Shown: one piece after another, positions 379-47,164 of the stretch
How the letters are laid out: each line of letters begins with the position of its first letter
How positions within the stretch are numbered: the stretch's first letter is position 1
Origin: a virus
Length of the DNA: 64,000 bases
Virus record (IMG/VR): IMGVR_UViG_3300045988_117002
Direction: 5' to 3' (one strand)
The notes under the pieces: generated by a model
The model's input: the letters and a program-made list of their open reading frames with translations, nothing else
The model's database searches: none
Told to the model about the DNA's origin: nothing
Program-made: the position numbers and the translations under genes

Positions 379-394
379 TGAAAGTTTACTTTCA
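379..394. promoter_or_regulatory. TGAAA-N6-TTTCA intercistronic palindrome, copy 1 of 13
   Basis: tgaaagtttactttca between stop of 396..674 and SD of 1..353. Confidence 0.6.
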
Positions 395-395
395 T

Positions 396-674
396 CTAAT
401 AATCTTCTTTTGGTTGACCTGTAATTTCTCTCAAGCAAGCGTTCCAACCATCAGCATATCCATCTTCCCATTCATCAGGATAATGATTTTCATGATCTTC
501 TTCTGGTAATGATTTCAATGGACACCACTCTGGACGACTATTATTTTCTCCTACATTACTACATATTTCTTTTTTATAGTAATAACAAGATAATGAACCA
601 TCCATGTCTAAAACATATAAATTACAGTCAAGACATTTCTCTGGTGTTTTCATTATCAATACCGATTTTCGCAT
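396..674 (-). CDS. hypothetical Cys-rich protein
   Basis: Co-directional minus-strand ORF, several Cys pairs, acidic C-terminus. Confidence 0.55.
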   Translation of the reverse strand: MRKSVLIMKTPEKCLDCNLYVLDMDGSLSCYYYKKEICSNVGENNSRPEWCPLKSLPEEDHENHYPDEWEDGYADGWNACLREITGQPKEDY

Positions 675-868
675 TTAAGCACCTCTTCTTTCAGTTCCTG
701 TGCTACAATATTTATATCAATCATATTACATGTGTTATTGATTTCAAGCCTTTCTCTAATTCGTTCCACAAATTTATCAATAATCCCATTTTTGACTTTT
801 TCATCATGATTCCGCATCCATCCACTACCTTGTAAGAAAGAAATGCAGATTTCATTATTCAGTTTCAT
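656..868 (-). CDS. hypothetical protein
   Basis: Trimmed to ATG 868 preceded by AAAGGTGA SD; longer 964 start would overlap the upstream gene. Confidence 0.45.
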   Translation of the reverse strand: MKLNNEICISFLQGSGWMRNHDEKVKNGIIDKFVERIRERLEINNTCNMIDINIVAQELKEEVLKCENRY

Positions 869-881
869 TCGCTTCACCTTT

Positions 882-1157
882 CTACACATACCACGCCCAA
901 ATCGGATTAACCTCCATTTTTGGTGCGTTACATTTTTTCCTAATTCTTTTATGCTTTTTAGCATTTTTCTCGATATAGCCGCCTCGTGTTTTAATTCCTC
1001 TTTTTATATCCCTGTAGGCTTCCATTATTGGACTGTATACCTGTTCAACAAGATATCCACATCTTTCACACGATCCGTGGCGTTCAACTATTCCAAAATA
1101 GTACTCTGAGAAACTAATATATTCATAATCATTTGATCCGCAAATAGGACAGTTCAT
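882..1157 (-). CDS. zinc-ribbon protein
   Basis: CPICG...CERCG pairs; 4-nt overlap with the upstream gene. Confidence 0.55.
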   Translation of the reverse strand: MNCPICGSNDYEYISFSEYYFGIVERHGSCERCGYLVEQVYSPIMEAYRDIKRGIKTRGGYIEKNAKKHKRIRKKCNAPKMEVNPIWAWYV

Positions 1158-1465
1158 TCAGCTCCACCACCTTTTACAATATCAATGGCTCTATCAATTG
1201 TATTTGCAATATTTTTGTAAGCACAGTCTTTATCGGCATCACCCGTATTTGCGATTGTTAAAAAGTATCTCATTTTTAATTTTTTTAACTGCTCTACAAC
1301 CTTGTCTACATCAAAAGCTGTCGGCTGTTCTTGAACAGTTGTAATTGCAAGATGTGTAAATAAATCCATCGGAGAAACATCATTTTCCGCAGCTTTCTGC
1401 TTTTCTTTATCCCAATACCATTTTCTCATTTCTTGAATTAATTTATTAGAATCAATCAGTCTCAT
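1154..1465 (-). CDS. hypothetical protein
   Basis: Co-directional ORF in tightly packed array. Confidence 0.55.
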   Translation of the reverse strand: MRLIDSNKLIQEMRKWYWDKEKQKAAENDVSPMDLFTHLAITTVQEQPTAFDVDKVVEQLKKLKMRYFLTIANTGDADKDCAYKNIANTIDRAIDIVKGGGAE

Positions 1466-1545
1466 TCTTTATTTCTCCCAATTAATACGCAACCACTAAG
1501 TAACATCACAAACAACAATTCTACAATCACTGTAAATCCATCCAT

Positions 1546-1725
1546 TTATTCTTCTCCATACATACAAATTTCACACATATATTTACATTTTCCACAATGA
1601 GAATCATACCATTTGTTAAATTCCTCTGTTTTTATTTCATGTGTAATATTTGTTTTTAGCCAATATTCATCATACTTAAATCCGCATATATCATGCATGT
1701 CCATATTATATAAATTCTTATTCAT
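1546..1725 (-). CDS. hypothetical small Cys-rich protein (59 aa)
   Basis: Hand-translated ORF below track threshold (MNKNLYNMDMHDICGF...CGKCKYMCEIC). Confidence 0.35.
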   Translation of the reverse strand: MNKNLYNMDMHDICGFKYDEYWLKTNITHEIKTEEFNKWYDSHCGKCKYMCEICMYGEE

Positions 1726-1742
1726 ATTTTTACCTTATCTAA

Positions 1743-1961
1743 TTACCTTGTTTTTTCTAAACCTAATTCTCTTTGCTTCTCTGCAATTCTTAATGGAATA
1801 TATAATTTATGATAACCTCTTTTACATACATCACAATTGCCATAACCATGTCCCCAACAATAATCACAAAATTGTTCAAATTGTTTCTTTAATGCATCAG
1901 AAGAATCTGTATTTGCAAATCCTTCCCAAATAATTTCTGTTACAAAACTTATGTTACTCAC
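1743..1961 (-). CDS. hypothetical Cys/His-rich protein
   Basis: GTG start behind GAGGAAAGG SD; CDYCWGHGYGNCDVC. Confidence 0.5.
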   Translation of the reverse strand: MSNISFVTEIIWEGFANTDSSDALKKQFEQFCDYCWGHGYGNCDVCKRGYHKLYIPLRIAEKQRELGLEKTR

Positions 1962-1997
1962 CCTTTCCTCACAGATGAAAAAAGACGCAATTCATTA

Positions 1998-2243
1998 CTA
2001 AATCATAAAGAATAATTTCCATATTAATGGATGTTTCTTAATTTTCTTAATTAATCCATATGCACATACATAATTTACATTTTCCCAATTCCCTGTATCA
2101 ATGACATAATCTCCATCTGGAATTAATAAATCTTGCATAATAATTGAGAAATCATATCCGTCAATATACCCAAATAAATTATCTTTCCCAAGTTTCTTTT
2201 CAATTTCTTTCAATCTCTGTTCTGCTATATATAACTCTTTCAT
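1998..2243 (-). CDS. hypothetical protein
   Basis: Co-directional ORF with GGAGAA SD. Confidence 0.55.
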   Translation of the reverse strand: MKELYIAEQRLKEIEKKLGKDNLFGYIDGYDFSIIMQDLLIPDGDYVIDTGNWENVNYVCAYGLIKKIKKHPLIWKLFFMI

Positions 2244-2257
2244 ACATTAATTCTCCT

Positions 2258-2273
2258 TGAAAACAACATTTCA
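2258..2273. promoter_or_regulatory. TGAAA-N6-TTTCA palindrome, copy 2
   Basis: tgaaaacaacatttca immediately 5' of the SD of 1998..2243, overlapping the stop of 2271..3233. Confidence 0.6.
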
Positions 2274-3233
2274 ATTCTTAATCACTTTCATATTTTTATC
2301 CCAGCTACCTGAAATTGTACCGTCTGGATGAATAATAAATTCTCTACAAACATGATTATCTTCTATTTTCTCAACTTCACTTAACATTTTCATATTTGAA
2401 TAACTAAAAGTAATTAATGTATCTTTGTATTTCCATATTTCATATACATAGTAATCTTGAATTGTTTGTTCTACTAACTCAAAATGATTATATGCATATT
2501 CAAGAATCTCATTGTATAACTTCTCTTTATCGTCATATTTAATACCACTATGATCACTCAACTTCATAAGTTTTCTAAAAGATAAATCATCTGCAAACGA
2601 ATATGCATCTATCATTTCTAATACATCTTCAATTGTATTTGCATCACATAATACACATTGCAATCTCATTTTTGTTTCAACTAATTTGCCTTTAATACAT
2701 TTTAAATCAAATAAGGAAGGCATATATGTATTAAAAATTTCATTATTTCTCTTATCAGAAATTGCATGACGACTAATATCTACAAAATCAAACAACCCAT
2801 CAATTTTATCAAGATTATCTTCTAAATATTTACCATTTGTATTCATTGTAAGAAATTTAATATCATGATTTCTTAATACATCACATAATTTATCAAATTC
2901 TTTAAATAACAATGGCTCACCACCTGTAACGGAAACTGAATATAAAATGCCAGCATTTTCCATTTCAGTTAACATTTCATCAACTTGTTTTACGAAATAC
3001 TCTGCATTTTCACAACGTTCAGCATTCTGCTCTACGCAGAAAAAACATTTTGCATTACATACATCAGTTAATTTTAAATGTAAATGCCATAACCACTCGT
3101 TTCTTTCTACTAAAACTTTATTACCGAATAAATTTACTTCCATTTTATCATCATAAGTTATGGGTAACTTTTCAACATTACACTTATGAATATAATCTTT
3201 TATATCTTTAATTTGTACAAACATAAATATCAC
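2271..3233 (-). CDS. radical SAM enzyme (subfamily unknown)
   Basis: CNAKCFFC (CX3CX2C) cluster motif, VSVTGGEPLL SAM-binding motif, NTNG strand; no SPASM-type extra Cys clusters. Confidence 0.8.
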   Translation of the reverse strand: MIFMFVQIKDIKDYIHKCNVEKLPITYDDKMEVNLFGNKVLVERNEWLWHLHLKLTDVCNAKCFFCVEQNAERCENAEYFVKQVDEMLTEMENAGILYSVSVTGGEPLLFKEFDKLCDVLRNHDIKFLTMNTNGKYLEDNLDKIDGLFDFVDISRHAISDKRNNEIFNTYMPSLFDLKCIKGKLVETKMRLQCVLCDANTIEDVLEMIDAYSFADDLSFRKLMKLSDHSGIKYDDKEKLYNEILEYAYNHFELVEQTIQDYYVYEIWKYKDTLITFSYSNMKMLSEVEKIEDNHVCREFIIHPDGTISGSWDKNMKVIKN

Positions 3234-3259: not shown

Positions 3260-3763
3260 TTATCTATTAATAAGTAATTCTTTTGGACAATAAATAATTC
3301 TCTTTCCTGCTTTTTGTGCTTTACGAATAGTAGACCAAACACCGCCAGATTTATTACCGTCCCAAATTGCTAGTAATACATCACACTTATCAACTATGTA
3401 TTGATCTCTTACGTTATCACAGCCTTTATAAAATTTATCTGATAATTCAACCCATTCAGTTGCTTTTAGCTGTAGAAATTTATAATATTTATGTGATGAG
3501 TTATAATCTTTACAAGGAAGAATACAGTGTAATTTAATGTTATTTATGTAATGCATTGACACTCCTGCAATCGCAAATGCAATATCACTCCCCGAAGCCA
3601 TTCCTGTATATAAATCAAGTGGTTCATTATTATCTGCACAAATCTTTGTAAATTTACTCAATTCATCTATAATCCAAAACTGAATTGGAGTCCATTTTTC
3701 ATCTGTTTCATCTTTTGGTAAACCTAATCTTTGATTTCTGTGTCCTGTTATTCCAACTTTCAT
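3260..3763 (-). CDS. SLOG-fold protein (YpsA/DUF1273- or DUF2493-like)
   Basis: MKVGITGHR..., GMASGSD, LLAIWDGNKSGG motifs typical of SLOG/LOG-like Rossmann proteins; ATG 3763 behind GAGAGG SD. Confidence 0.5.
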   Translation of the reverse strand: MKVGITGHRNQRLGLPKDETDEKWTPIQFWIIDELSKFTKICADNNEPLDLYTGMASGSDIAFAIAGVSMHYINNIKLHCILPCKDYNSSHKYYKFLQLKATEWVELSDKFYKGCDNVRDQYIVDKCDVLLAIWDGNKSGGVWSTIRKAQKAGKRIIYCPKELLINR

Positions 3764-3788
3764 TTTACACACCTCTCATTTTTGTCCT

Positions 3789-3804
3789 TGAAACTGCCGT
3801 TTCA
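3789..3804. promoter_or_regulatory. TGAAA-N6-TTTCA palindrome, copy 3
   Basis: tgaaactgccgtttca between stop of 3809..4315 and start of 3260..3763. Confidence 0.6.
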
Positions 3805-3808: not shown

Positions 3809-4315
3809 CTATTTAATCTCAAATTTAATAGGTAACATTGCTGTAAATCTACAATCCAACCAAGGTTTATCCTCTGTTTTAAATTTTTCCTTATCCGTTT
3901 CGGAAGTTAAAACAAAATTACCTATAGTATAAATTAAAGTATGCCCTGATAAATCTTTTGGAAGCGTTACATTCTTAAAATAAGTTTTAAGATTAATGAT
4001 GTTTTCTACACATATTTCCATTAGTTCATAAAGATGTGCATAAGTTCCATCAGATAAGCAACGCTGCATTGTAAAATAATCATATTCGGCATTTGGATTA
4101 TAAATAATTTTTACTTTAAATGTACCTTTATTTAGAATGTTATATTCAAATGTCTGACTACATAAAATAGAACCTGTGATTGCTAATTTTAATGATTCTT
4201 TGAGAATTTCAAACGGTGTTTGTTCTTCTGTCAACTTATTATATTTATTATTCTCCATACCGTTTGTTCCACCTGATTGAATTCTCTCTTTAATAAATTC
4301 CAATGATTTTCCCAT
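3809..4315 (-). CDS. hypothetical protein
   Basis: Co-directional ORF, 168 aa. Confidence 0.6.
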   Translation of the reverse strand: MGKSLEFIKERIQSGGTNGMENNKYNKLTEEQTPFEILKESLKLAITGSILCSQTFEYNILNKGTFKVKIIYNPNAEYDYFTMQRCLSDGTYAHLYELMEICVENIINLKTYFKNVTLPKDLSGHTLIYTIGNFVLTSETDKEKFKTEDKPWLDCRFTAMLPIKFEIK

Positions 4316-5305: not shown

Positions 5306-5608
5306 TCATTCTTCCTCTTTGAATGCTTTTAATTTGTCCTCTAAATATTCAACTTCATTCTCCCAATGTTCAATCAACATTTCTTCGATCTCATCTTTTA
5401 TATCATCAATGTTATCTCCAAATAACCAGTCATCTTCTACATTCATTTCTTTTGATGTATAATTGTAGTATTTTGTATTTTCGTTATCTTGCGCAACGAT
5501 AGCAATGACAGCATCATCACTTTCGTCTTCTCCAAATGGTGTAAAATATAATGCATAACATGGTTTTCCATATTTATTATTACCAATATTCTTCCAATAT
5601 TTACTCAT
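5306..5608 (-). CDS. hypothetical acidic protein
   Basis: Co-directional ORF abutting the next gene. Confidence 0.55.
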   Translation of the reverse strand: MSKYWKNIGNNKYGKPCYALYFTPFGEDESDDAVIAIVAQDNENTKYYNYTSKEMNVEDDWLFGDNIDDIKDEIEEMLIEHWENEVEYLEDKLKAFKEEE

Positions 5609-5649
5609 ATTGCAACTCCTTTAATGTTATAATGAAAACCGTATTTAAA

Positions 5650-6228
5650 CTAACTATATTTTTCTTCTATACCATCGGCTTCTTTAATAGTAAGATTTCT
5701 TACTGCATTAAACTGATCTTTATATGATAAATCATCAAATTCATATACTGTCATATCTTTTAATTCTTCTAAAGAATACAATTTACTTTCAATCATATTT
5801 TCATCACTGATAATACAAGCAAGACTAATCCCATCTTCATCTTTATAAAACTGATTATCTTCAAAACCATCTGCTTTATCATTCACACTATCCCAAACTC
5901 TTTGTCTAAATTCTGAAATTTGACATACATATTCAGATAATAGTACATAAGCTTTACTGCGTGAAATCACAGATTCTCCATATGTATTTGGAAATAACAT
6001 TTCTTCTTGTAATACTTCTTCTAAAAATTTTGTTTTCAAAAGTTTCTCTAACTGTTCATTTGTAATTTCCTTACGTCCTTTTAACCAAAATACAAATGGT
6101 ATTGGTTTAACAATTAACTCATTATAATCAATGTAATCTTCGCCAGCTTCTTCCATAAATCTATGGAATACACAATAACATAAGAATGGATCTTTCAAGT
6201 CGTCTGGTGATTTAATAATATAACTCAT
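5650..6228 (-). CDS. hypothetical protein
   Basis: Co-directional ORF with AGGAGG SD. Confidence 0.6.
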   Translation of the reverse strand: MSYIIKSPDDLKDPFLCYCVFHRFMEEAGEDYIDYNELIVKPIPFVFWLKGRKEITNEQLEKLLKTKFLEEVLQEEMLFPNTYGESVISRSKAYVLLSEYVCQISEFRQRVWDSVNDKADGFEDNQFYKDEDGISLACIISDENMIESKLYSLEELKDMTVYEFDDLSYKDQFNAVRNLTIKEADGIEEKYS

Positions 6229-6243: not shown

Positions 6244-6259
6244 TGAAACTCGTGTTTCA
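6244..6259. promoter_or_regulatory. TGAAA-N6-TTTCA palindrome, copy 4
   Basis: tgaaactcgtgtttca directly 5' of the AGGAGG SD of 5650..6228. Confidence 0.6.
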
Positions 6260-10970: not shown

Positions 10971-11405
10971 TTAAATATAATCTTGTATTGTTCTTCTCAA
11001 TTCAGAAATTTTATATTCAAATATTCTAATTTGCTTCTGAATCTTATCTATTCTATCGTTTTCATATTGTACTTTATCTTCCATAATACCTTCCGCAAAT
11101 CCTCGTTTAGTCAATTTATAAGCGAAAAAATCTTTATCAATTTGATTATAAACAATAGTTTTGTTGCTCTTACTTTTAATGTAATCTCTTGATACATATT
11201 CAGTTCCATAGCAAACATTTTTATACTCTAAATCATATTTTCCATTTTGATTTAGATTTCTCTCGTACAATTCTTGTCGATCAGGTTCTCCACTTTCGCC
11301 AGTTCCATGCAATAAATAATGTTTTCCATCATAGTCAAAAAGAATAGACCAATCTCTCACTTTCGTTATCTTTAATAATGAAACATCTTGAATATTAATC
11401 ATCAA
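10971..11405 (-). CDS. hypothetical protein
   Basis: Co-directional ORF. Confidence 0.55.
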   Translation of the reverse strand: MMINIQDVSLLKITKVRDWSILFDYDGKHYLLHGTGESGEPDRQELYERNLNQNGKYDLEYKNVCYGTEYVSRDYIKSKSNKTIVYNQIDKDFFAYKLTKRGFAEGIMEDKVQYENDRIDKIQKQIRIFEYKISELRRTIQDYI

Positions 11406-11435
11406 ATCACCTTCTAAAATGAAATAAATTTTTCA

Positions 11436-11588
11436 TCATGTAAAAAACATTACAAAAATAGTTACTATTAAAGAAATACTCATTATACTAATAACATCTA
11501 TATTTCTTTTACATATCATTCCAGTTATAGAAATTGCTGTACATACAATCCACATAACAATTAACAAAATTGTTGTACCTGTAATCAT
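11436..11588 (-). CDS. small membrane protein (50 aa)
   Basis: Hand-translated; two hydrophobic segments; ATGA overlap with the stop of 11585..11938. Confidence 0.35.
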   Translation of the reverse strand: MITGTTILLIVMWIVCTAISITGMICKRNIDVISIMSISLIVTIFVMFFT

Positions 11589-14241: not shown

Positions 14242-14272
14242 ATTTTCTCCTTTGAAATGCCAATTTCTTCTG

Positions 14273-15843: not shown

Positions 15844-16029
15844 TCACTCACTTTCGTTATTATCTTCTGGTTGATTGAAGTAAATTCTGTCGATAATCTC
15901 ATAAACTTCATCAACATCAAATGTTTCTACTTCTGGAAAATATTTTCCGTTACAAATTCCACCGTGATAACGACTTGCATTATTATTCAACCTGTCTATT
16001 AATTCATTTCTAAATTCAACTGTTGTCAC
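15844..16029 (-). CDS. hypothetical protein
   Basis: GTG start behind GGAGGTG SD. Confidence 0.5.
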   Translation of the reverse strand: MTTVEFRNELIDRLNNNASRYHGGICNGKYFPEVETFDVDEVYEIIDRIYFNQPEDNNESE

Positions 16030-16043: not shown

Positions 16044-16059
16044 TGAAAGCAATATTTCA
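16044..16059. promoter_or_regulatory. TGAAA-N6-TTTCA palindrome, copy 5
   Basis: tgaaagcaatatttca abutting the GGAGGTG SD of 15844..16029. Confidence 0.6.
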
Positions 16060-16446: not shown

Positions 16447-16665
16447 TCAATAATCTCCCAAATATCCTGTGATAACTTCTATCGTCCATAATAATACATA
16501 CCATACAACAGGTGCTAAAAAGCATTTTAATAGTGAAATTCCCAATAATTTACCCGAAAATACCCCTGTTGCAATGGAAAATAACAGATGAAAGACGGGT
16601 TTCATGAATAAAAATCCCAATGAAATTATCACATTTGCTACTATTCCACCTAGAAAACAATCCAA
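16447..16665 (-). CDS. small multi-pass membrane protein (holin-like?)
   Basis: 72 aa, about three hydrophobic segments. Confidence 0.5.
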   Translation of the reverse strand: MDCFLGGIVANVIISLGFLFMKPVFHLLFSIATGVFSGKLLGISLLKCFLAPVVWYVLLWTIEVITGYLGDY

Positions 16666-19265: not shown

Positions 19266-19719
19266 AATATAATTATGAATATAATCTAATTTATAAAATT
19301 CATTTTCAAATTCCTTACTTATTGTATATCACTTCTTTTCTTTGAAACTCAAGTTTTAATAAAACAAGTCTTTCATCTACATTTTTAAATTTATCACACT
19401 GACTCTCTTTCATTTCTTCTCCATGAAAACCCAATTGTAAATAACATTTATTAAGTATATTGCAGGTATCATAATCAACATAATATTATAAATCAATTCT
19501 ATCATTCTTAATTACTCCTAAAACTCACATTTTATCTATGTTTTTGATATATTTTTAAAACTTTCAAATTTCATATGACAATACGTTTCAAGTTTTGTAG
19601 CTATGTCAAATTAAATAGTTATCGTGTATATTACATAGCTTTTAGTGAGTGCTTAACCTCACCTTTCAGGTGCAAAATCACCTGTACATTTCTGCAATGA
19701 CGTGAATGAAACCACGCTT

Positions 19720-25754: not shown

Positions 25755-25782
25755 TTGTATCACCTCACTTGAAAGCTGGATT

Positions 25783-26088: not shown

Positions 26089-26261
26089 TCTCCAATAATA
26101 ATTGGTCTATAAATAACATCCACATTCTTTAAAAGTTCCAATGCTTCATCACACGCTTTCCAAGCATCACTTAATTTTTTATATCGTCCTAAATAAATAC
26201 TACCTTTAGGAGCATAATTAATGTAACTTGTATACATATATTCTCCATTATTTAATATACT

Positions 26262-26884: not shown

Positions 26885-26968
26885 ATTCACACCTCCATAA
26901 AATCAGTCATTCATCGTATTATTCTACGTTTATAATTATAAATTTATAATTGCAGGGTGTGAATATGC
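26881..26968. repeat. 13-bp perfect inverted repeat spanning the tnpB stop
   Basis: gcatattcacacc (26881-26893) and ggtgtgaatatgc (26956-26968); one arm lies in the tnpB 3' coding end, the other covers the SD and start of the next ORF. Confidence 0.75.
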
Positions 26969-30830: not shown

Positions 30831-31058
30831 TCACCATCCAATCACACAATATCCATTTACGATTCCAACACAATTATTTGATATAGATGTAATTTTAAAA
30901 CATGCTTCTTTATTAGGTTGTATACTATAAAAGCAGATCATATCTCCAATCATATAATCATTATTTTGAGTAATTACGTAACTTTTTATACCACTGATAA
31001 TACAATCATATTCTTCTGACTGTATCTTTAATTTATGCATTTTCGGTTTTCTTATCAT
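30831..31058 (-). CDS. DUF3850/ASCH-like (PUA-fold) protein
   Basis: MHKLKIQSEEYDCIISGIKSYVITQNNDYMIGDMI resembles the DUF3850 N-terminal signature as recalled. Confidence 0.45.
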   Translation of the reverse strand: MIRKPKMHKLKIQSEEYDCIISGIKSYVITQNNDYMIGDMICFYSIQPNKEACFKITSISNNCVGIVNGYCVIGW

Positions 31059-31239
31059 GTATATTTTCCTTTATTCCAAGATAATAATGATGAGTATCTT
31101 CTTTTATTTGTTCATCTTTTCTATAAATTCCATAACCATTTTGTTTATCAATAAACTTATATCCGTCTGGAATTTTATCAACCAATTCTACCTTCAAATT
31201 ATTTTCATTAATTTGAAATTCTTCAAAACCTATTACCAT
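31033..31239 (-). CDS. hypothetical protein
   Basis: Co-directional ORF. Confidence 0.5.
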   Translation of the reverse strand: MVIGFEEFQINENNLKVELVDKIPDGYKFIDKQNGYGIYRKDEQIKEDTHHYYLGIKENIHDKKTENA

Positions 31240-31273
31240 AATTCCTCCGATCTAATTTTATGAAATGCATGTT

Positions 31274-31516
31274 TTATTGTAATTTGACCAAATCATAACT
31301 ATTTACTGACATATCAATGATTTGTTGACCATCCCATTGTACATAAACAAATCCATCTGAGTAATAATGGAGTCCTTTTATAACAGTTCCATCTATATAT
31401 TCTGTTGTATGATCATGTCTGTTTTTATATTTTCTTACTCGATCTCCCTTTCTTAAACACTTCCAATCTTTATTTTCTACCAACCACATACCCCTTTCAT
31501 GAAAACAATCTTTCAA
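31274..31516 (-). CDS. hypothetical protein
   Basis: Co-directional ORF. Confidence 0.5.
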   Translation of the reverse strand: MKDCFHERGMWLVENKDWKCLRKGDRVRKYKNRHDHTTEYIDGTVIKGLHYYSDGFVYVQWDGQQIIDMSVNSYDLVKLQ

Positions 31517-31713
31517 CTTCTCACCAAATCCATCACAATCTTAACACCAAATCTCTCAAATGCTTCATAAGTTCTTTCCAACTCGTCATAAGTTGCCTTA
31601 CTTAATCTGTCTCGCATCAACATTAAGTCATTTTCTGATGGATTAATTTCTTTTTTAATTTGATTTAATATAGCATCTCTATATTTACATTTTATCGAAA
31701 AATCCCCAACCAT
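31513..31713 (-). CDS. hypothetical protein
   Basis: Co-directional ORF with 4-nt overlap. Confidence 0.5.
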   Translation of the reverse strand: MVGDFSIKCKYRDAILNQIKKEINPSENDLMLMRDRLSKATYDELERTYEAFERFGVKIVMDLVRS

Positions 31714-31732: not shown

Positions 31733-31969
31733 CTATAACATTACCCATAGATTTCTACCATAATATTCTCTTCTTATATGAGAAACATCATTATCAATTT
31801 TAGACAATTCAACTTTTTCAAAAGTTACATTTTTGCAGCCATCCATAGTTCTGTTTCCAAATCTATTTTTAGTACATTCAATTCCATTTGATAATTCCTC
31901 AACCATAACAGAAGTCACTTCTCGTAAATGTTTGATTTTTTGTGTTTCTTCATACGTCATATTATTCAC
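31733..31969 (-). CDS. hypothetical protein
   Basis: Co-directional ORF. Confidence 0.5.
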   Translation of the reverse strand: MNNMTYEETQKIKHLREVTSVMVEELSNGIECTKNRFGNRTMDGCKNVTFEKVELSKIDNDVSHIRREYYGRNLWVML

Positions 31970-31980: not shown

Positions 31981-31996
31981 TGAAAGCAATTTTTCA
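31981..31996. promoter_or_regulatory. TGAAA-N6-TTTCA palindrome, copy 7
   Basis: tgaaagcaatttttca 5' of the AAAGGA SD of 31733..31969; nearly identical to copy 5. Confidence 0.6.
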
Positions 31997-32167
31997 ACTT
32001 ATTCTACAATCTGTATAATATGAACATTTTCTTTTGGATAATTCATCTTCAAACAATCATCTTTGAATTTTCTTGCAGCGTTCAATGTCATTTCATCACT
32101 CATCTGATAACCGCCACTATGTCCTTTATATATAACTCTATACATATCTATCACTCCTTTAAAACCG

Positions 32168-32359
32168 TCATTTTATGTTATTCTTAATCTTTTTTAATCT
32201 CTCTTGTGTTCCACCAAATTCGTAACACTTGCATGGTTGATTATTAACAGATACATCTTTTCCGTACTTCTTTCCGAAGCATCTACCAAGCCATTCTTTT
32301 TTTCTACATAGCTGGCAGTTATGCTTATTTTGTCCTGGTGTAATATGCATCATTATCAT
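32168..32359 (-). CDS. small Cys-rich basic protein
   Basis: CQLCRKKEWLGRC...CKC. Confidence 0.5.
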   Translation of the reverse strand: MIMMHITPGQNKHNCQLCRKKEWLGRCFGKKYGKDVSVNNQPCKCYEFGGTQERLKKIKNNIK

Positions 32360-33077: not shown

Positions 33078-33093
33078 TGAAAGTTAAATTTCA
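33078..33093. promoter_or_regulatory. TGAAA-N6-TTTCA palindrome, copy 8
   Basis: tgaaagttaaatttca 5' of an AAGGAAG SD and a 21-codon micro-ORF. Confidence 0.55.
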
Positions 33094-34110: not shown

Positions 34111-34326
34111 TCATGTATTTTCCCTGTGAAAAATCTCATTCATCTGTAACATTAATTCAAGCTGCTCAATTTCCGTTTTCAACTTTTTCATTACCAGCAA
34201 ATCATTAATTGTATTATCCTCATATGTGGGAGAATCTATGTTTTGTATATTTATTTTGAAGTATTCCTGTTTCTTAGATAAATCTTCTTGTAAAGAATTT
34301 ATTCTTGCAATAATCCATTCATTCAT
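34111..34326 (-). CDS. hypothetical coiled-coil protein
   Basis: Co-directional ORF. Confidence 0.5.
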   Translation of the reverse strand: MNEWIIARINSLQEDLSKKQEYFKINIQNIDSPTYEDNTINDLLVMKKLKTEIEQLELMLQMNEIFHRENT

Positions 34327-34355
34327 ATTTTCGCTCCATAAAACTATTCTTTCAT

Positions 34356-34877
34356 CTATTGAATCTTACAATAATCTCTACTCATTTTTACAATTTGATT
34401 TGTAGAATAAGATGAATAAATTTTATTAAGTGCTTCTCTGTATTCAATAACATTAAAATCTTTTAATTTTTGTTCTGAAACTACTTTAAATAACTGTTTT
34501 GTAAATCTTTCTGATAATCCAACTAACCTCATATGTTTAATTTCTCCTGTTACAGCATCCACTAACATAATTGTCAGTCCTAATCCTTGATTTTTTCCAA
34601 CTGAACTTAATTCTGACAAATTCTTGCTCAAATGTGACGAATATGGAGCGTCCATCCAATTAAGATTTCCGATTTTCGCCGTAATTATTATCAATCCATA
34701 TAATTCTAAGAATCTTATTTCAAATTTATTTCCACTTTTAAATTGATTAATTTCATCTTGTGTTGGATTTCCAAAAAATATTATTAATGTTGCACCATCA
34801 TCAGCAATATCAAAAAGAACACCTTCATGATGATTTTTAAAATTTTCTATAACCTGACCTACTCTATATGATGTCAT
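34356..34877 (-). CDS. hypothetical protein
   Basis: Co-directional ORF. Confidence 0.55.
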   Translation of the reverse strand: MTSYRVGQVIENFKNHHEGVLFDIADDGATLIIFFGNPTQDEINQFKSGNKFEIRFLELYGLIIITAKIGNLNWMDAPYSSHLSKNLSELSSVGKNQGLGLTIMLVDAVTGEIKHMRLVGLSERFTKQLFKVVSEQKLKDFNVIEYREALNKIYSSYSTNQIVKMSRDYCKIQ

Positions 34878-36823: not shown

Positions 36824-37225
36824 CTAATTTTTAAATTTAATATTTCTTTCCTCTAAATAATCAATTAATGGTCTAAAATAAACATCTGGTTCTTTGATGC
36901 TAGAAATGTTATTTTTCGCCCATTGAAGTAATTTTTCTGATAATTCTCCACCATTCACTAAATAATTCAATTCAAGAAGATGTAATTTATCTGCTACATC
37001 TAGTGGATATTTTTCATATAAGTATTTAGATGGAAGCATACATATCCATTCTTTTGCCAAATAAGTTTTCATCTTTAATTTAGTAATTTTCGATTTTGTC
37101 AATTCGCTTATCAAATCAATTCCATCTTCTTCCATATCATTTAATCGAAAGAAATTCTGTATAACTTCTATATCAGTTCTGCCAGAAATCTGTTGTTCCG
37201 TTACTAAATCTTTTAATGTAATCAT
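36824..37225 (-). CDS. hypothetical protein
   Basis: Co-directional ORF. Confidence 0.55.
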   Translation of the reverse strand: MITLKDLVTEQQISGRTDIEVIQNFFRLNDMEEDGIDLISELTKSKITKLKMKTYLAKEWICMLPSKYLYEKYPLDVADKLHLLELNYLVNGGELSEKLLQWAKNNISSIKEPDVYFRPLIDYLEERNIKFKN

Positions 37226-37239: not shown

Positions 37240-37255
37240 TGAAAACTGGTTTTCA
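37240..37255. promoter_or_regulatory. TGAAA-N6-TTTCA palindrome, copy 9
   Basis: tgaaaactggttttca between stop of 37253..37528 and the AGGGAG SD of 36824..37225. Confidence 0.6.
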
Positions 37256-37528
37256 TCTACTCTTTTCAATCATATCAAAAATTTCATCCCAATCAGAATA
37301 ATTCTGTAATTTTTCTTGCGGAACTAATAATTCATATTCTTCTTCAATTTCTTCTCGTGATCCATATCCATTAAAACTAGGAAGACTACCAAATAATTCA
37401 TTATGTTTTTCCATTTGTCTAAAAACAACAATGCTTTTCTCTGGGAAATTTCCCATATGTGTAGCGTAACTATCAATTTGAATAATTGACTTATCTTTTT
37501 TGTTTACATAAATATCTCCAAGTTTCAT
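37253..37528 (-). CDS. hypothetical protein
   Basis: ATG 37528 behind GGAGGAAAATAAA. Confidence 0.5.
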   Translation of the reverse strand: MKLGDIYVNKKDKSIIQIDSYATHMGNFPEKSIVVFRQMEKHNELFGSLPSFNGYGSREEIEEEYELLVPQEKLQNYSDWDEIFDMIEKSR

Positions 37529-37542
37529 TTTATTTTCCTCCA

Positions 37543-37558
37543 TGAAATTCTCGTTTCA
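37543..37558. promoter_or_regulatory. TGAAA-N6-TTTCA palindrome, copy 10
   Basis: tgaaattctcgtttca abutting the GGAGG SD of 37253..37528. Confidence 0.6.
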
Positions 37559-37998: not shown

Positions 37999-38553
37999 TT
38001 ATTTATAAATGTTACTTGTAATATGAACAGTCGCATAATATGTTCTTCCAATCTCTTTTGCGATTTCCACATTACCCTTATTCTGTTTCATAAGAACTTT
38101 AATTCTTCTTCGTTCTTCTGGTGTGATCTTGTTTCTATGCCTTTCTGGTATGTACGAATTTTTTATACTACACATCCAATCTGGCTCTGGTAATATAGAA
38201 CCAGCTTCATATTTACGCCAGTTGATTTCTGTTTTATGATTTTTCGCCCATTCCCAAAAGTTATCAGGATCAATCAGATATCGTGTCGAATTGGAAACTT
38301 TAAACTTCTTACATGGAAGTTTTAACTTTTCAATCCATCTGATCACAACAGATATGTCACAATTGAATGCTTTTGCTATTGTTTTAGCAGCAAGGCATTC
38401 TCCGCAGTAATGATTAAGACCTAATTTCCTCGCCTTATGTTTAACAGATGATACACTTCTGTTCAAAAATTTTGCCGTAGTTTCAACTGATTGATTCAAA
38501 TACCTTCTATACATATAAGTTTCTTCATCTTTTGTCCATTCTCTTCTTCCCAT
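37999..38553 (-). CDS. HTH DNA-binding protein (Myb/SANT-like repeat)
   Basis: WTKDEETYMYRRY...TAKFLNRSVSSVKHKARKLGL plus C-terminal GNVEIAKEIGRTY HTH. Confidence 0.45.
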   Translation of the reverse strand: MGRREWTKDEETYMYRRYLNQSVETTAKFLNRSVSSVKHKARKLGLNHYCGECLAAKTIAKAFNCDISVVIRWIEKLKLPCKKFKVSNSTRYLIDPDNFWEWAKNHKTEINWRKYEAGSILPEPDWMCSIKNSYIPERHRNKITPEERRRIKVLMKQNKGNVEIAKEIGRTYYATVHITSNIYK

Positions 38554-38596
38554 ACACTACCTCTTAGCTCTAGCTTTCAATAAAATACGATTTTCA

Positions 38597-40468: not shown

Positions 40469-40846
40469 CTATTCTAATTCTTCTATTGAAAATCCATATT
40501 TTTCTTCGAATTCATTTTCCCCGTAAGTCTCTAACATATCCATAATATTAGGATGTTGCCAATCAACAAATTCAAATAATTCTTCTGCTACATCTTTGTG
40601 TCCATTACATTCTTCTACAAAATCATTTCCCGTATAACAACTATGAAGAACATTTTTAATTTCTTCCTTATTTAATTTTGTATCTATATTAATTTCATTC
40701 AAATCAATATCTGGAATATAAATAATATCATCAGTTATTTCAAAATCACTTTTATATATAATACAGTCCTGTCCATCCGAAAAATGAAATAAATCTTTAA
40801 GTCTATATCCTTCGATTAATTTTTTCTTTAATTCTTTTGCTGTCAT
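40469..40846 (-). CDS. hypothetical acidic protein
   Basis: Co-directional ORF. Confidence 0.55.
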   Translation of the reverse strand: MTAKELKKKLIEGYRLKDLFHFSDGQDCIIYKSDFEITDDIIYIPDIDLNEINIDTKLNKEEIKNVLHSCYTGNDFVEECNGHKDVAEELFEFVDWQHPNIMDMLETYGENEFEEKYGFSIEELE

Positions 40847-40879
40847 ATTTATTATTCCTTTCTTAAAATCATCATTTCA

Positions 40880-41083
40880 TTAAAATCCTAAAATCATCAA
40901 TATAATTGCTACTACTAACATTACAAATGACATCAAAGCTAAAAATACTCTCTCACCATCTCTTTCGTCATTATAATTTGTAAGTATATACCAACAAGCC
41001 AAACTGATTATCGCACTCGAAATACTTCTCATAATTTCCTCCAATTCTTCTTTTATATTATAATTTGTTAATTTCTTCTGCAA
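40880..41083 (-). CDS. small membrane protein
   Basis: Two hydrophobic segments. Confidence 0.5.
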   Translation of the reverse strand: MQKKLTNYNIKEELEEIMRSISSAIISLACWYILTNYNDERDGERVFLALMSFVMLVVAIILMILGF

Positions 41084-41276
41084 TTTTCTTCAATACATTA
41101 CCGCCTTCTATTTTCTCAATGCTATCTCCATTTTCCCATATTGTTAAAATTGGGTAATCATTATATTGTGGATCAAAATAAGTTTTGTCACACATTTTCT
41201 TTCTTATCATGTTAATATCTTCTGATATACAAGCAGTGCGCCCTGTGTTGTATTCTTCTAATATATATATTTTCAT
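41058..41276 (-). CDS. hypothetical protein
   Basis: AGGAGG SD. Confidence 0.5.
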   Translation of the reverse strand: MKIYILEEYNTGRTACISEDINMIRKKMCDKTYFDPQYNDYPILTIWENGDSIEKIEGGNVLKKIAEEINKL

Positions 41277-41289: not shown

Positions 41290-41305
41290 TGAAACTCTTG
41301 TTTCA
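41290..41305. promoter_or_regulatory. TGAAA-N6-TTTCA palindrome, copy 11
   Basis: tgaaactcttgtttca fused to the AGGAGG SD of 41058..41276, 5 nt after the upstream stop. Confidence 0.6.
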
Positions 41306-41310: not shown

Positions 41311-41538
41311 TTACACTAAATCATCAATCTCAATCACATCTGGATTATCACTAAACCATGTATCGTTCTCAGAAATTTCCTTTAATTCAATAAAATCACA
41401 TTCTGGATTATATTCATTGGAATGTTTTAAATATGCTGTTTTAACTTTCTCTCTTGCATCATCGTATGATTTAGCTTTAACAATCCCGATTGCTAAATGT
41501 TCAATTCTATATCCGTATAATCCTTCTATATTTAACAT
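41311..41538 (-). CDS. hypothetical protein
   Basis: Co-directional ORF. Confidence 0.5.
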   Translation of the reverse strand: MLNIEGLYGYRIEHLAIGIVKAKSYDDAREKVKTAYLKHSNEYNPECDFIELKEISENDTWFSDNPDVIEIDDLV

Positions 41539-41562: not shown

Positions 41563-41578
41563 TGAAATATCTCTTTCA
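41563..41578. promoter_or_regulatory. TGAAA-N6-TTTCA palindrome, copy 12
   Basis: tgaaatatctctttca in the 54-nt gap between a terminator and the start of 41311..41538; I see no sigma-A promoter in that gap. Confidence 0.6.
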
Positions 41579-41592: not shown

Positions 41593-41634
41593 GTTAATTA
41601 AAACAGGTGGCACTCTATATCAAGTACCACCTGT
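41593..41634 (-). terminator. rho-independent terminator after the antirepressor gene
   Basis: Minus strand ACAGGTGG..CCACCTGT 8-bp stem followed by TTTTAATTA. Confidence 0.6.
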
Positions 41635-43122: not shown

Positions 43123-43294
43123 ATGTATATCCTCCATCAACTCAGTATTGCTACTATAATAAGTATTGTAAGTCCAATTCCCAAACAATAACCTAACTCG
43201 TACATTTTAATCTTCTCCTTTAATCCTGTTCTAAGTATAAAATTAGCCTTATAGATTTATTCTCTACAAGGCTATAAAAGATACATTTCATCTG

Positions 43295-43492
43295 TTAGTC
43301 TTCATCTGGTTCATCCCATCCGTATGTATCTCTAACTTGTTCTAAAATATCATCACTGGAAATCATAGCACTACAACAAAGACATATAGGGATGGTTTTC
43401 TGTACACGTTTTCCATTTTTCTTTCCATGATATGTATATTTCCCAATAGGCACTCTATTATTAGTTGTATTACAATACCAACAATTTGACAT
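43295..43492 (-). CDS. zinc-ribbon protein
   Basis: CWYCN...CLCC; ATG 43492 behind GGAGGAAATAG. Confidence 0.55.
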   Translation of the reverse strand: MSNCWYCNTTNNRVPIGKYTYHGKKNGKRVQKTIPICLCCSAMISSDDILEQVRDTYGWDEPDED

Positions 43493-43532
43493 AACTATTT
43501 CCTCCATAACGTTCTTTATATATTATTTCCTA

Positions 43533-44615: not shown

Positions 44616-44629
44616 ATTCTTATCCTCCA

Positions 44630-45467: not shown

Positions 45468-45528
45468 TCTTATTTCCTCCTATTCTCACATTCCATAGAA
45501 AACACTTTCTTTTCTATTTTTAATCATT

Positions 45529-45717
45529 CTAGCATGCTGATTTTACAATTCTATAATCCTGTTCTTCCCATCCATCTGCAATAAGATCGTCATACAATTT
45601 ATTAAATTCTTCTGCATTGTAAATAGTTCCTAAACCCTCTGTAATATCTCGATACTCACCATCTCCAAAATCCCAAAAGACTTTCTCTTCCGTTCCTTTT
45701 TTTATTACTATATCCAT
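45529..45717 (-). CDS. hypothetical protein
   Basis: Co-directional ORF. Confidence 0.5.
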   Translation of the reverse strand: MDIVIKKGTEEKVFWDFGDGEYRDITEGLGTIYNAEEFNKLYDDLIADGWEEQDYRIVKSAC

Positions 45718-45730
45718 GTGCTATCCCCCT

Positions 45731-45973
45731 TTACAATATCTCAACTTCTTTCACATTCCATGTGATTTTTGTTAAATCATCAGAAATTTTCCCATCATAA
45801 CTCTGATGTGTAGAATCCCATATGAGTTCTACTGTATCATCTGGACGTACACAAGCCCATAAATGATCATGATTTACTTTTGTGATACAGATAATTCCTG
45901 TATCGTCAAATGTTCTATGCTTTTCTGCTCTTTCCTGTTTTAATAATTCCATTGCTTTTTCATAATTTGTCAT
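45731..45973 (-). CDS. hypothetical protein
   Basis: Co-directional ORF. Confidence 0.5.
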   Translation of the reverse strand: MTNYEKAMELLKQERAEKHRTFDDTGIICITKVNHDHLWACVRPDDTVELIWDSTHQSYDGKISDDLTKITWNVKEVEIL

Positions 45974-46021
45974 AGTATCAACCCTCCATCACGTTTTGAC
46001 CTGTTTATATTATTGATTATA

Positions 46022-46258
46022 TTACAATGCTTTTAATTTCACAACACCATTATATATAGTAAATTTTCCATATACATAATTGTCTTGTGTAAAATCATAA
46101 TCGTAAACGTGCCATAATTCCAATTCAGTGTTACATTTCCATCTGTTCTTATTTAAGATGTCGCAAATTTTCTTTGCGCTTCTATCCGAAGCAAAGAAAG
46201 CATATGTTTTTGAATGTAGATACTCCGTTCCCTTATTTGTCATTGCAATTAATTTCAT
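46022..46258 (-). CDS. hypothetical protein
   Basis: ATG 46258 behind AAGGAAGG. Confidence 0.5.
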   Translation of the reverse strand: MKLIAMTNKGTEYLHSKTYAFFASDRSAKKICDILNKNRWKCNTELELWHVYDYDFTQDNYVYGKFTIYNGVVKLKAL

Positions 46259-46343
46259 GTTATCAATTCCTTCCTTATTATATAGTGTTCTGTTTGACCG
46301 TTCAATCGGCATACAGAACTATTTTCCGTATGCCTATCAACGG

Positions 46344-46553
46344 TCAAACATTGTTGTATAAGCGGTCAATTGTTCTCATGATCTTCATCATCAAACCATA
46401 TTCTGTTAAACCTTCCCACATAACAATAGAAGTCTTTCCGTTTACGGTAACAAACACGCTTTCCGATTCTTCTGAATATGTCACTGTTACTCTGTTTCCG
46501 TTTGTATACGGATTTTCTTCTAACATTTCATTAAATTTGTTGATCCATTCCAT
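46344..46553 (-). CDS. hypothetical protein
   Basis: Co-directional ORF. Confidence 0.5.
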   Translation of the reverse strand: MEWINKFNEMLEENPYTNGNRVTVTYSEESESVFVTVNGKTSIVMWEGLTEYGLMMKIMRTIDRLYNNV

Positions 46554-46569
46554 TTTTCTTTTCTCCTGT

Positions 46570-46752
46570 TCATTCTATTAATTCTTCTATTGTTTCGCAC
46601 AATCTTAAAAGAGCAGCTTTCACCACACTATTTCCGTTAAGTTGTGATAACTCATTGTATAGTTCTGTTTCCGCTTCTTCTCTGTTTTCTTCATCGTCAT
46701 AGCCATCGGAAAGACAGTCGATAATCTTTCTTGCTAATTCTGAACTATTCAT
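46570..46752 (-). CDS. hypothetical acidic protein
   Basis: Co-directional ORF. Confidence 0.5.
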   Translation of the reverse strand: MNSSELARKIIDCLSDGYDDEENREEAETELYNELSQLNGNSVVKAALLRLCETIEELIE

Positions 46753-46773
46753 GTTTATTTCCTCCCTTGTGGT

Positions 46774-47130
46774 TTAATGAACTTTCCAACATTGCCAATA
46801 ATAATCTTCTTTTGTTGCTATTTCTTCTGGAGTCATATCAGGATTAAACATTTGTGTTCTTCTAATAAAATCTTTGTACTGTTCATTAAAATCATCACAA
46901 TATGTAATTTCTTCTGATAAAATTCTCCCATCATCACTCGCATATTCATAAATAATACTTGATTCATCACTATTGTATGTTTCCAAAAATTTATTAATTG
47001 TTCTGCCGTCTTCTGTTTCTATTAAATAATCTTGTAAACATTCTTTTGTAATTTTAAATCTTACTTCTCTTTCTACATCCAAAGTATCATCAATATAGTT
47101 ACAAATTTTTAATTCTACAAACTTATCCAT
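46774..47130 (-). CDS. hypothetical protein
   Basis: GGAGG SD. Confidence 0.55.
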   Translation of the reverse strand: MDKFVELKICNYIDDTLDVEREVRFKITKECLQDYLIETEDGRTINKFLETYNSDESSIIYEYASDDGRILSEEITYCDDFNEQYKDFIRRTQMFNPDMTPEEIATKEDYYWQCWKVH

Positions 47131-47148
47131 ACCAGTTTACCTCCTGTC

Positions 47149-47164
47149 TGAAATGTGAATTTCA
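47149..47164. promoter_or_regulatory. TGAAA-N6-TTTCA palindrome, copy 13
   Basis: tgaaatgtgaatttca overlapping the stop of 47162..47392 and 4 nt 5' of the GGAGG SD of 46774..47130. Confidence 0.6.

Follow-up and report, generated by a model that had tools for sequence, protein, structure and literature searches.

What reads a short palindrome that recurs at one gene boundary after another is the question raised by the 64,000-nucleotide (nt) stretch of virus record IMGVR_UViG_3300045988_117002 (called the window below, at its full length). The palindrome, TGAAA-N6-TTTCA (the dyad), had been picked out in a sequence-only reading of the window, in which thirteen perfect copies were listed and a site for a dimeric protein, a promoter and an RNA stem were all considered. 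From the analysis described here, the dyad appears to be a control site used across the genome of this large gut phage that has so far gone undescribed, and a DNA-binding protein acting as a dimer is its most likely reader.

Number, spacing and placement of the dyad

The window was scanned for exact TGAAA-N6-TTTCA on both strands, coding regions included, and the expected number was taken from dinucleotide-preserving shuffles. Eighteen perfect copies were found, compared with 0.59 +/- 0.75 in the shuffles (shuffle maximum 3), which agrees with the earlier estimate of fewer than one chance occurrence in 64 kb. All thirteen copies listed previously were exact, and those at 11420, 16589, 25770, 26069 and 31500 were added to them. 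One-mismatch copies numbered 25, with about 9 expected; the three noted before (5633, 14253 and 19343) are real and belong to this set, which consists mostly of copies changed by G>A at base 2 or by C>T at base 15. With the degenerate form T[G/A]AAA-N6-TTT[C/T]A (TRAAA-N6-TTTYA), 36 matches were obtained where 4.4 were expected. When inverted repeats with all 5-mer arms and spacers of 3-9 nt were counted, only TGAAA at spacer 6 stood out (18 copies; runner-up 6), and the spacing is called strict on that ground; the N5 and N7 versions of the dyad were not enriched in the window. With N6 the half-site centres are 11 bp apart, which is one helical turn. The core of the dyad is W-T[G/A]AAA-N6-TTT[C/T]A-W.

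The G+C content of the window is about 30%, and its genes run leftward from about 52.3 kb to position 1 and rightward past about 56 kb. The copies belong to the leftward (early) block, where 35 of the 36 degenerate matches lie, at or below 52028, the remaining one being at 55281; as had been observed, no perfect copy occurs in the rightward block. Read on the minus strand, all but one of the perfect copies (17 of 18) are intergenic, with a stop codon on one side and the ribosome-binding site of the following gene on the other. According to home-made gene calls (longest open reading frame (ORF) plus a Shine-Dalgarno (SD) rule), which are crude, the non-coding share of the block is about 17%, and the probability that at least 17 of 18 copies would fall there is about 1e-12. 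The statement that the copies occur only in intercistronic gaps holds for every perfect copy except that at 16589, which lies inside an ORF (Table 1).

About a quarter of the gaps between early genes, or ~25% of gene starts, are occupied by a dyad. The upstream stop codon is often the motif's own TGA or lies 0-7 nt 5' of the motif; the start codon follows 10-25 nt from the motif's 3' end, and the dyad centre is 19-35 nt from it. The position just 5' of the SD, which had been proposed, was seen in most copies: a GGAGG-type SD usually begins 0-5 nt past the motif, and 0-1 nt past it in about a third of the copies. The copy said to precede a tRNA gene was confirmed, 33 nt upstream of tRNA-Met, and the terminator noticed ahead of copy 41563 corresponds to a real terminator-like hairpin. 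In relatives, a few copies precede a -10-like element by 15-18 nt in place of an SD, and the dyad then overlaps the -35 region. Genes directly behind strong sigma-A-like promoters have no dyad.

Dyads in close relatives, SPbeta and phiCDIF1296T

The window is a mosaic relative of MT835469.1, a 176-kb unannotated phage contig from human faeces. As query for related loci, a 765-amino-acid (aa) protein encoded at 20483-22780(-) was used, in which a weak sigma-factor-like N-terminus (phrog_1740, E=1.3e-4) is fused to a phrog_2598 region; it retrieved 24 IMG/VR loci with 42-94% protein identity. The dyad was found in 23 of them at 1.3-4.5 copies per 10 kb, including three distant ones in which the marker protein is 42-48% identical, and the exception is a 5.5-kb fragment. 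In MT835469, 24 of the 25 perfect copies lie in the 8-92 kb block that is homologous to the leftward block of the window, with one in the remaining ~88 kb. Conservation of the motif in related phages was borne out by these counts.

Proteins found in common between MT835469 and SPbeta by tblastn are the DNA polymerase, terminase, portal protein, YomM, YonJ and the HU-like YonN. The architecture of MT835469 is that of SPbeta, in which polymerase, HU and YonJ genes head the late block and a long early/replication block is divergent. SPbeta (AF020713) contains no copy of TGAAA-N6-TTTCA and 34 copies of TAAAA-N6-TTTTA, compared with about 1.8 expected (16 versus 0.97 and 13 versus 0.49 in two parts of the genome). 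These copies are not annotated in the record (for example 86074, 95129, 113664, 117535 and 126703), and 30 of the 34 are intergenic; of these 30, the early plus-strand region holds 23 and the late region 5. They typically open with the TAA stop codon of the upstream gene, 19-35 nt ahead of the next start. Several adjoin annotated stem-loops, on either side: at 76171 (aimR) and 99498 (yorE) the order is terminator stem-loop, dyad and a promoter carrying SPBRE, the MrpR operator. At yosX the dyad lies in the 5' leader, about 85 nt downstream of the gene's own SPBRE-type promoter. Dyads stand at 57148 and then at 69424, with none in the yonK-yonN interval. The SPbeta element can be written as a 28-bp quasi-palindrome, TYWRRA-TAAAA-N6-TTTTA-WWYARA (consensus TCTAGATAAAA-N6-TTTTATCTAGA).

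The Clostridioides difficile phage phiCDIF1296T (CP011970) was reached through its YonJ homologue. Its minus-strand early block has 19 matches versus 4.1 expected, and its late block 5 versus 3.3. The early copies are nearly all TAAAA..TTTTA, lie in annotated intercistronic gaps and are usually followed by ATA..GGAGG (for example 59418, 77279/77303 in tandem, 80189 and 80906). The dyad is therefore conserved in three distant SPbeta-like lineages (window clade, SPbeta and phiCDIF1296T), in which its invariant part is the A-tract/T-tract dyad AAA-N6-TTT. On the basis of shared architecture and placement, the dyads of SPbeta and phiCDIF1296T were assumed to be functional homologues of the window motif. 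No description of the dyad was found in the literature searched, nor any of palindromes or repeats in SPbeta and phiCD211 papers; the original SPbeta genome paper (Lazarevic et al. 1999) lay outside this search, and an earlier mention is possible.

DNA site or RNA stem, and the candidate readers

Base preferences were compiled from 114 unique instances of the window clade, orthologues included. Beyond the ten core bases, only positions -1 (A68/T31/C14/G1) and +16 (T57/A45/G12/C0) were informative. These two are mirror-complementary (r=0.93) despite very unequal C and G backgrounds on the strand, and the spacer preferences are weakly mirror-symmetric (r=0.52, versus -0.21 in the same-base comparison). 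No covariation was found between the paired positions, with 45 Watson-Crick pairs versus 47.7 expected for (-1,+16) and 32 versus 31.8 for (5,10). In SPbeta, mirror symmetry reached r=0.75 in the flanks and 0.77 in the spacer (about 0 in the same-base comparison), and covariation was absent from its 30 instances too, the outer positions being complementary in only 7-16 of 30, as for independent halves. A longer stem with flanking or loop-closing pairs is ruled out by the zero covariation in the window clade and SPbeta. For the canonical 5-bp stem, the mean energy is -1.6 kcal/mol and the median probability of pairing in context is 0.17; this stem would be entirely A-U in SPbeta and phiCDIF1296T. 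In orthologous copies with identical spacers, the left-arm G>A and the right-arm C>T flip independently, and all four combinations occur at typical positions. By distinct loci, the variant states comprise 9 with an A.C mismatch and 17 with G.U, and no G.U substitution was seen at the three A-T pairs of the stem. An Rfam search of the window matched only the tRNA. The strict N6, the mirror symmetry without covariation, the weak stem and the independent half-sites fit a symmetric dimer on B-DNA and not an RNA stem; the position of some copies just downstream of terminators, where little RNA is made, also favours a DNA site. On these features of the sequence, we consider a site on double-stranded DNA, read by a symmetric dimer, more probable than either a hairpin in RNA or a promoter for a polymerase, and the earlier argument from fixed half-sites and spacing around a variable spacer is supported by much larger samples.

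The explanation that we prefer, tentatively and at rather less than an even chance, is a multi-copy operator like the stoperators of mycobacteriophages, which would be bound by a symmetric dimer and gate transcription at the gene boundaries of the early block. In this model, a regulator encoded by the phage or, less likely, by the host would bind the dyad on double-stranded DNA as a symmetric dimer. Dozens of bound boundary sites, behind stop codons, before ribosome-binding sites and beside terminators and promoters, would then gate the passage of RNA polymerase (RNAP) from gene to gene. We infer both the binding of the dimer to DNA and the block or insulation of transcription that this binding would cause. 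Such sites might keep the early block silent in a prophage or in a carrier state, or end its expression as late development begins. The operator of a phage regulator is, among the ideas of the sequence-only reading, the one that survives best.

In cluster A mycobacteriophages, repressors bind numerous stoperator sites across the genome, halting elongation and silencing the prophage (PMC9283540). Like the dyad, stoperators (L5, TipsytheTRex) are short specific sites in tens of copies across transcription units, extra to ordinary promoters. Brown et al. are said to have placed them, in 1997, in short intergenic spaces near stop and start codons; the dyad likewise occurs in tens of copies in short intergenic spaces (18 perfect and 36 degenerate, the perfect ones nearly all in gaps). 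In L5, one and the same site is operator and stoperator. Stoperators are asymmetric 13-bp sites that act in an orientation-dependent manner and are bound by a monomer with two DNA-binding domains, whereas the dyad is symmetric with N6 spacing; together with its mirror-symmetric flanks, this symmetry means that, unlike a stoperator, it can encode no orientation. Stoperators occur in both genome arms, whereas the dyad is confined to the early block in the window clade and phiCDIF1296T and biased towards it in SPbeta. A wider proposal, possible but held more loosely, is that the SPbeta-like Firmicutes phages (SPbeta, the large plasmid-like C. difficile phages and an uncultured 160-180 kb gut clade) share a genome-wide cis-regulatory system. 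In it, a dyad at a quarter or more of early-gene boundaries would be read by a conserved dimeric protein and would gate transcription, or coupled transcription-translation, gene by gene, as a symmetric and independently evolved counterpart of the stoperators.

Several observations weigh against the operator explanation. The pooled instances are not independent, as orthologues are among them, and the roughly twofold excess of G.U-type over A.C-type variants leans slightly towards RNA, although it possibly results from the C-poor coding strand. In long gaps, the dyad stands at one edge, beside the SD or the stop codon and never mid-gap (SD-side examples are 6244, 19519 and 37543). The tight abutment on the SD is not explained by a simple roadblock and keeps an RNA-level or translation-linked role alive. 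A stoperator is the operator at an early lytic promoter, whereas the strongest sigma-A-like promoters of the block (24746, 30050 and 23979), and that at 53106, have other repeats and no dyad. As for the binder, the switch region of the window gave no Pfam or PHROG match and no known DNA-binding family, and an HU-family binder is a weak candidate since an HU-like gene is also present in the Thomasclavelia phage TR-TP1, which has no dyads despite RNAP/HU/YonJ synteny. Little enrichment (7 versus 2.95) was seen in the 50-kb part of a staphylococcal SPbeta-like phage, which comprises late genes and some of the early block. When 185,579 genomes were searched with peptide patterns from the sigma-like fusion alone, no prophage or host was found, and a temperate lifestyle is not supported.

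An RNA-level element is an unlikely alternative on the evidence above: a hairpin or two sequence blocks 5' of the ribosome-binding site would serve a phage translational regulator or endoribonuclease, and early mRNA would be processed or a subset of genes controlled in translation. The tight SD anchoring, kept even in long gaps, the restriction to the transcribed early block, the preference of about 2:1 for G.U-compatible (TTTTA) variants and the dyad-less genes directly behind strong promoters, which an intercistronic element predicts, would all suit it, and the copy upstream of the tRNA could be a processing site. It is opposed by the zero covariation, by A.C-mismatch copies that are common at typical positions, by the constant loop length and the lack of G.U variants at the A-T pairs, by the weak, in two lineages all-A-U stem, by a mirror symmetry of unpaired flanks and spacer that is hard to reconcile with a hairpin, and by the several copies directly behind terminators and the empty Rfam result. 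The processing or stabiliser stem suggested earlier is weakened on the same grounds of covariation and stability. The idea of a switch based on pairing between UUUCAU of the 3' arm and an AUGAAA start was rejected, ATGAAA starts being no commoner behind the motif than elsewhere. Quite unlikely, in our judgement, is a set of middle-class promoters for the putative YonO-like RNAP, for the sigma-like fusion or for host RNAP with a dimeric activator, with the start inside the motif or at its 3' edge. Phage-specific promoters typically have such a density, about one per 2-3 kb ahead of genes; no sigma-A promoter lies between copy 41563 and the terminator-like hairpin before it, a conserved copy stands 24-33 nt upstream of a tRNA gene, and genes immediately behind sigma-A-like promoters have no dyad. 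However, the SD at 0-1 nt would put the start inside a symmetric element that carries no orientation information, and a promoter firing downstream of the motif would leave the SD out of the transcript; nor is any flanking position asymmetrically conserved. Published SPbeta work mapped a single YonO start site, upstream of yonK, and found only 37 late genes to be YonO-dependent; by analogy, YonO-like RNAP promoters are not supported, as the SPbeta dyads lie mostly in the YonO-independent early region and none is near yonK. Promoters for the sigma-like fusion are likewise not supported, since SPbeta has the dyad and no homologue of the 765-aa protein was detected in it. The yosX dyad, downstream of that gene's own promoter, is a further point against promoter activity. 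A sigma-A promoter hidden in the motif is excluded by the lack of -35/-10 conservation and by an SD that would not be transcribed. A CRP/FNR-type 5-N6-5 class II activator site (dyad ~41.5 bp upstream of the start site, -10 downstream) does not fit, as the distance from dyad centre to start codon would put the start site inside the downstream coding sequence. By reasoning only, a sigma-54-like TGGCA-N6-TTGCA was set aside: the dyad lacks its invariant GG and GC, and transcription would begin at the start codon. The CodY, CcpA and ComK boxes have a half-site order or spacing unlike that of the dyad. The virion RNAP of phage N4 is a T7-like enzyme that reads extruded single-stranded DNA, and its three promoters have a 5-7 bp stem and a 3-nt loop with a conserved central purine, with the start ~11 nt downstream. 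Both these promoters and the dyad are small inverted repeats upstream of genes in phages that encode an RNAP. Unlike them, the dyad has an unconserved spacer, five weak pairs, dozens of copies and an abutting SD, and an N4-type hairpin promoter, to which the earlier reading pointed, does not fit the variable 6-nt loop, the weak stem and the SD within 0-5 nt.

Architectural sites, bound and bent by a phage HU/IHF/TF1-family or other nucleoid protein, are very unlikely; such sites would serve to arrange the early region for replication, for compaction or for a global shut-off of early genes, and not as separate roadblocks. In their favour, the AAA-N6-TTT core is invariant in all three lineages, and the RNAP and YonJ homologues have an HU-family gene in synteny with them in MT835469 (158249-158611(-), beside the YonJ homologue and 45% identical to SPbeta YonN), SPbeta (yonN), phiCDIF1296T (phi179) and TR-TP1 (gp5). 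The HU-family protein of these phages has sequence similarity to SPO1 TF1, an HU homologue with favoured binding sites at early promoters, which offers a precedent. When a binder common to SPbeta was sought by tblastn, only replication and structural proteins, YonJ and HU-like YonN were detectable; the YonN homologue is the only DNA-binding protein shown to be common to the dyad-bearing lineages, and the HU/IHF/TF1-family protein encoded beside the YonO-like RNAP and YonJ homologues is a candidate binder. Architectural sites would have no need of exact gene-boundary placement, though; HU-family proteins are usually weakly sequence-specific, the link between protein and site is putative, and TR-TP1 has the gene without the dyad. 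Hardly probable at all are linkers at module boundaries, in which the microhomology of dyad plus SD would promote recombination of cassettes and produce a mosaic early region. When the window was aligned with its relatives, homology broke at 185 clustered points, of which 37 lie within 8 nt of a dyad versus 2.1% expected, many exactly at either edge, and one and the same copy, its spacer unchanged, can have different neighbours to its left and right. Among the breakpoints immediately before gene starts, however, 22 of 95 fall at dyads, near the share of gene starts that have one, so dyad boundaries are used no more than others. The excess vanishes once conditioned on gene starts, and a recombination hot spot was rejected; the dyad marks module boundaries, and a hot-spot role is not indicated by the breakpoint test. 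Ten specified bases and a variable spacer also offer little homology, gene-boundary mosaicism is general in phages, and purifying selection on exact half-sites in three distant lineages suggests a sequence-specific reader. The model for such linkers is the T4-type PeSL, a sigma-70 early promoter plus stem-loop that, as Arbiol et al. reportedly described in 2010, flanks small early ORFs in hyperplastic regions and at mosaic junctions. PeSL and the dyad are both short repeats at small early ORFs and mosaic junctions, but the dyad has no promoter consensus and its use at junctions is no higher than that of other boundaries.

Besides the stoperators on which the operator explanation is modelled, two repeat families resemble the dyad. 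The SAS/ESAS repeats of cluster K mycobacteriophages had no known function as late as 2025 (PMC3203893, PMC12699233). Like the dyad, they lie just upstream of the start codons of a subset of genes, in the non-structural half only, and the dyad is placed correspondingly, 10-25 nt from the start codon and in the early block only. ESAS, moreover, consists of inverted arms around a variable spacer, located directly 5' of the region for ribosome binding, and SAS and ESAS are conserved per gene family. SAS differs as a 13-bp asymmetric GC-rich word, GGGATAGGAGCCC, that contains the SD, whereas beside the dyad only a generic GGAGG is conserved; ESAS has imperfect 17-bp arms around a spacer of 4-13 bp, whereas the dyad arms are 5-6 bp (11 bp in SPbeta) with the spacer fixed at 6. 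SPBRE, the 15-bp operator of MrpR (YopR), is the master-repressor site of SPbeta; MrpR has a tyrosine-recombinase fold with catalysis lost, and SPBRE is the only motif reported from its ChAP-seq peaks (PMC10516654). SPBRE was re-derived here from ten published MrpR target genes as ...ACAAAWAATATGTAT..., in about 10 copies between the -35 and -10 of sigma-A promoters, and identity with the dyad is thereby ruled out. Both are repeated intergenic elements of the early part of an SPbeta-type genome, but the dyad differs in sequence and geometry, lies outside promoters without flanking -35/-10, and coexists with SPBRE, side by side at aimR and yorE.

Few phage groups are known to have control sites in many copies between genes (L5 stoperators, SAS/ESAS, SPBRE), and the dyad adds a symmetric one. 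It bears on how early regions that exceed 50 kb and hold about 120 small genes are silenced or timed; MrpR/SPBRE and arbitrium account for this at only a handful of promoters. SPbeta is a tractable model prophage of Bacillus subtilis 168, and with 34 copies there the function of the dyad is directly testable; whatever is learnt in SPbeta would also apply to the large phages of C. difficile and to a clade of gut phages that is abundant and uncultured.

Copies of the dyad and neighbouring features of the window

Table 1. Perfect and variant copies of the dyad in the window, with the features that adjoin them
Type	Position	Context
Perfect	379..394	Stop codon of 396..674(-) 1 nt upstream; then SD and ATG
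Perfect	2258..2273	Own TGA is stop codon of 2271..3233(-); then SD and start of 1998..2243(-)
Perfect	3789..3804	Between 3809..4315(-) and 3260..3772(-)
Perfect	6244..6259	Previous stop codon 178 nt back; SD of 5650..6228(-) 2 nt ahead
Perfect, newly listed	11420..11435	Abuts stop codon of 11436..11588(-); SD of 10971..11405(-) next
Perfect	16044..16059	SD GGAGG immediately 3'; gene 15844..16029(-)
Perfect, newly listed	16589..16604	Sole copy within an ORF, 16447..16665(-); gene junction in relative L009
Perfect	23706..23721	33 nt upstream of tRNA-Met 23597..23672(-); no SD
Perfect, newly listed	25770..25785	Own TGA is stop codon of 25783..26088(-); SD and start next
Perfect, newly listed	26069..26084	Abuts stop codon of 26085..26237(-); GGAGG and ATG next
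Perfect, newly listed	31500..31515	Own TGA is stop codon of 31513..31713(-)
Perfect	31981..31996	Ahead of 31733..31960(-); homology to relatives breaks exactly at both edges
Perfect	33078..33093	SD and small ORF next; in relatives a sigma-A-like extended -10 follows the same copy
Perfect	37240..37255	Between 37253..37543(-) and 36824..37225(-)
Perfect	37543..37558	Previous stop codon 35 nt back; SD 1 nt ahead
Perfect	41290..41305	GGAGG immediately 3'; gene 41058..41276(-)
Perfect	41563..41578	24 nt behind terminator-like hairpin 41634..41603(-); start of 41311..41538(-) 24 nt ahead
Perfect	47149..47164	Own TGA is stop codon of 47162..47392(-); ahead of 46774..47130(-)
Variant TGAAA..TTTTA (minus-strand sense)	52013..52028	Abuts AGGAGG; copy closest to the switch region
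Variant TAAAA..TTTCA (minus-strand sense)	47885..47900	Then GGAGG and ATG
Variant TGAAA..TTTTA	47584..47599	GGAGG immediately 3'
Variant	43275..43290	Directly behind stop codon of 43295..43507(-); abuts terminator-like hairpin 43274..43244(-)
Variant TGAAA..TTTTA	40864..40879	Abuts stop codon; SD of 40469..40846(-) next
Variant TGAAA..TTTTA	38581..38596	Abuts stop codon; start of 37999..38553(-) 27 nt away
Variant TGAAA..TTTTA	34339..34354	Between 34356..34877(-) and 34111..34326(-)
Variant TGAAT..TTTCA	34127..34142	SD and ATG next
Double variant TAAAA..TTTTA	32160..32175	AAGGAG and ATG next; in relatives TAAAA..TTTCA with same spacer
Variant TAAAA..TTTCA	31261..31276	Own TAA is stop codon; ahead of 31033..31239(-)
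Double variant TAAAA..TTTTA	19519..19534	Previous stop codon 124 nt back; GGAG immediately 3'
Two variant copies in tandem, 1 nt apart	19343..19375	Non-coding stretch
One-mismatch AGAAA..TTTCA	14253..14268	AAGGAG and ATG next
One-mismatch TTAAA..TTTCA	5633..5648	SD of 5306..5608(-) next

The dyad ahead of the tRNA gene has the same spacer in relatives, even in those with a different tRNA, and it stands 24-33 nt ahead of the tRNA gene. In three of them (L018 9135-9209, L027 9045-9119 and L028 9048-9122), the tRNA-Met behind the conserved dyad is replaced by a tRNA that ARAGORN was unable to assign, with an odd anticodon loop (ARAGORN output 'ta'). Upstream of the same tRNA, a long perfect hairpin without a T-run (AAGGATCTTATCTC...GAGATAAGATCCTT, 23925-23880(-)) lies directly downstream of the sigma-A-like promoter at 23979 and may be a small RNA or a leader structure. 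A 16-bp inverted repeat with a ~50-nt loop (ACAATATGCACAAAAC ... GTTTTTGTGCATATTGT, 6350-6275(-)) fills the 209-nt gap upstream of dyad 6244. The best sigma-A-like promoters (24746-24718, 30050-30022, 23979-23951 and 53106-53078, all on the minus strand) carry a direct repeat of 10-13 bp that flanks the -35 hexamer and differs at every promoter (ATATATAGTC; TGGTACTAATGC; CAAACAAATGTT; TAGGGTAMCCTAT); these repeats look like promoter-specific operators.

Besides many small ORFs, the leftward block encodes an SNF2 helicase, methyltransferases, a radical-SAM protein, TnpB, a tyrosine recombinase and Ant-type antirepressors. A 274-aa integrase-family protein (28366..29190(-)) shows the R / HxxR / ...RY motifs by eye, had no match among PDB sequences and is unlinked to the dyad. 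In the sigma-like fusion, Pfam and PDB sequence searches gave no match; its phrog_2598 region contains an IDGKQRST stretch like the DGQQR motif of DUF262/ParB-like domains. The rightward block opens with an ORF of more than 709 aa (61874-64000(+)) that runs off the end of the window. Homologues of this ORF from Enterocloster and Thomasclavelia phages carry the annotation RNA-dependent-RNA-polymerase-like, and the identification as a putative YonO-like RNAP rests on these annotations and on synteny. Between the window and MT835469 (about 164.8-167.7 kb), this ORF is ~27% identical and the DNA just upstream (57994-61425) 97%, so that phages which are otherwise close appear to have exchanged the polymerase gene. 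The TnpB/IS605-OrfB gene 26936..28099(-) (26900-28137) is 96% identical to MT835469 41302-42539, where it stands at another location, and the element has therefore been recently mobile.

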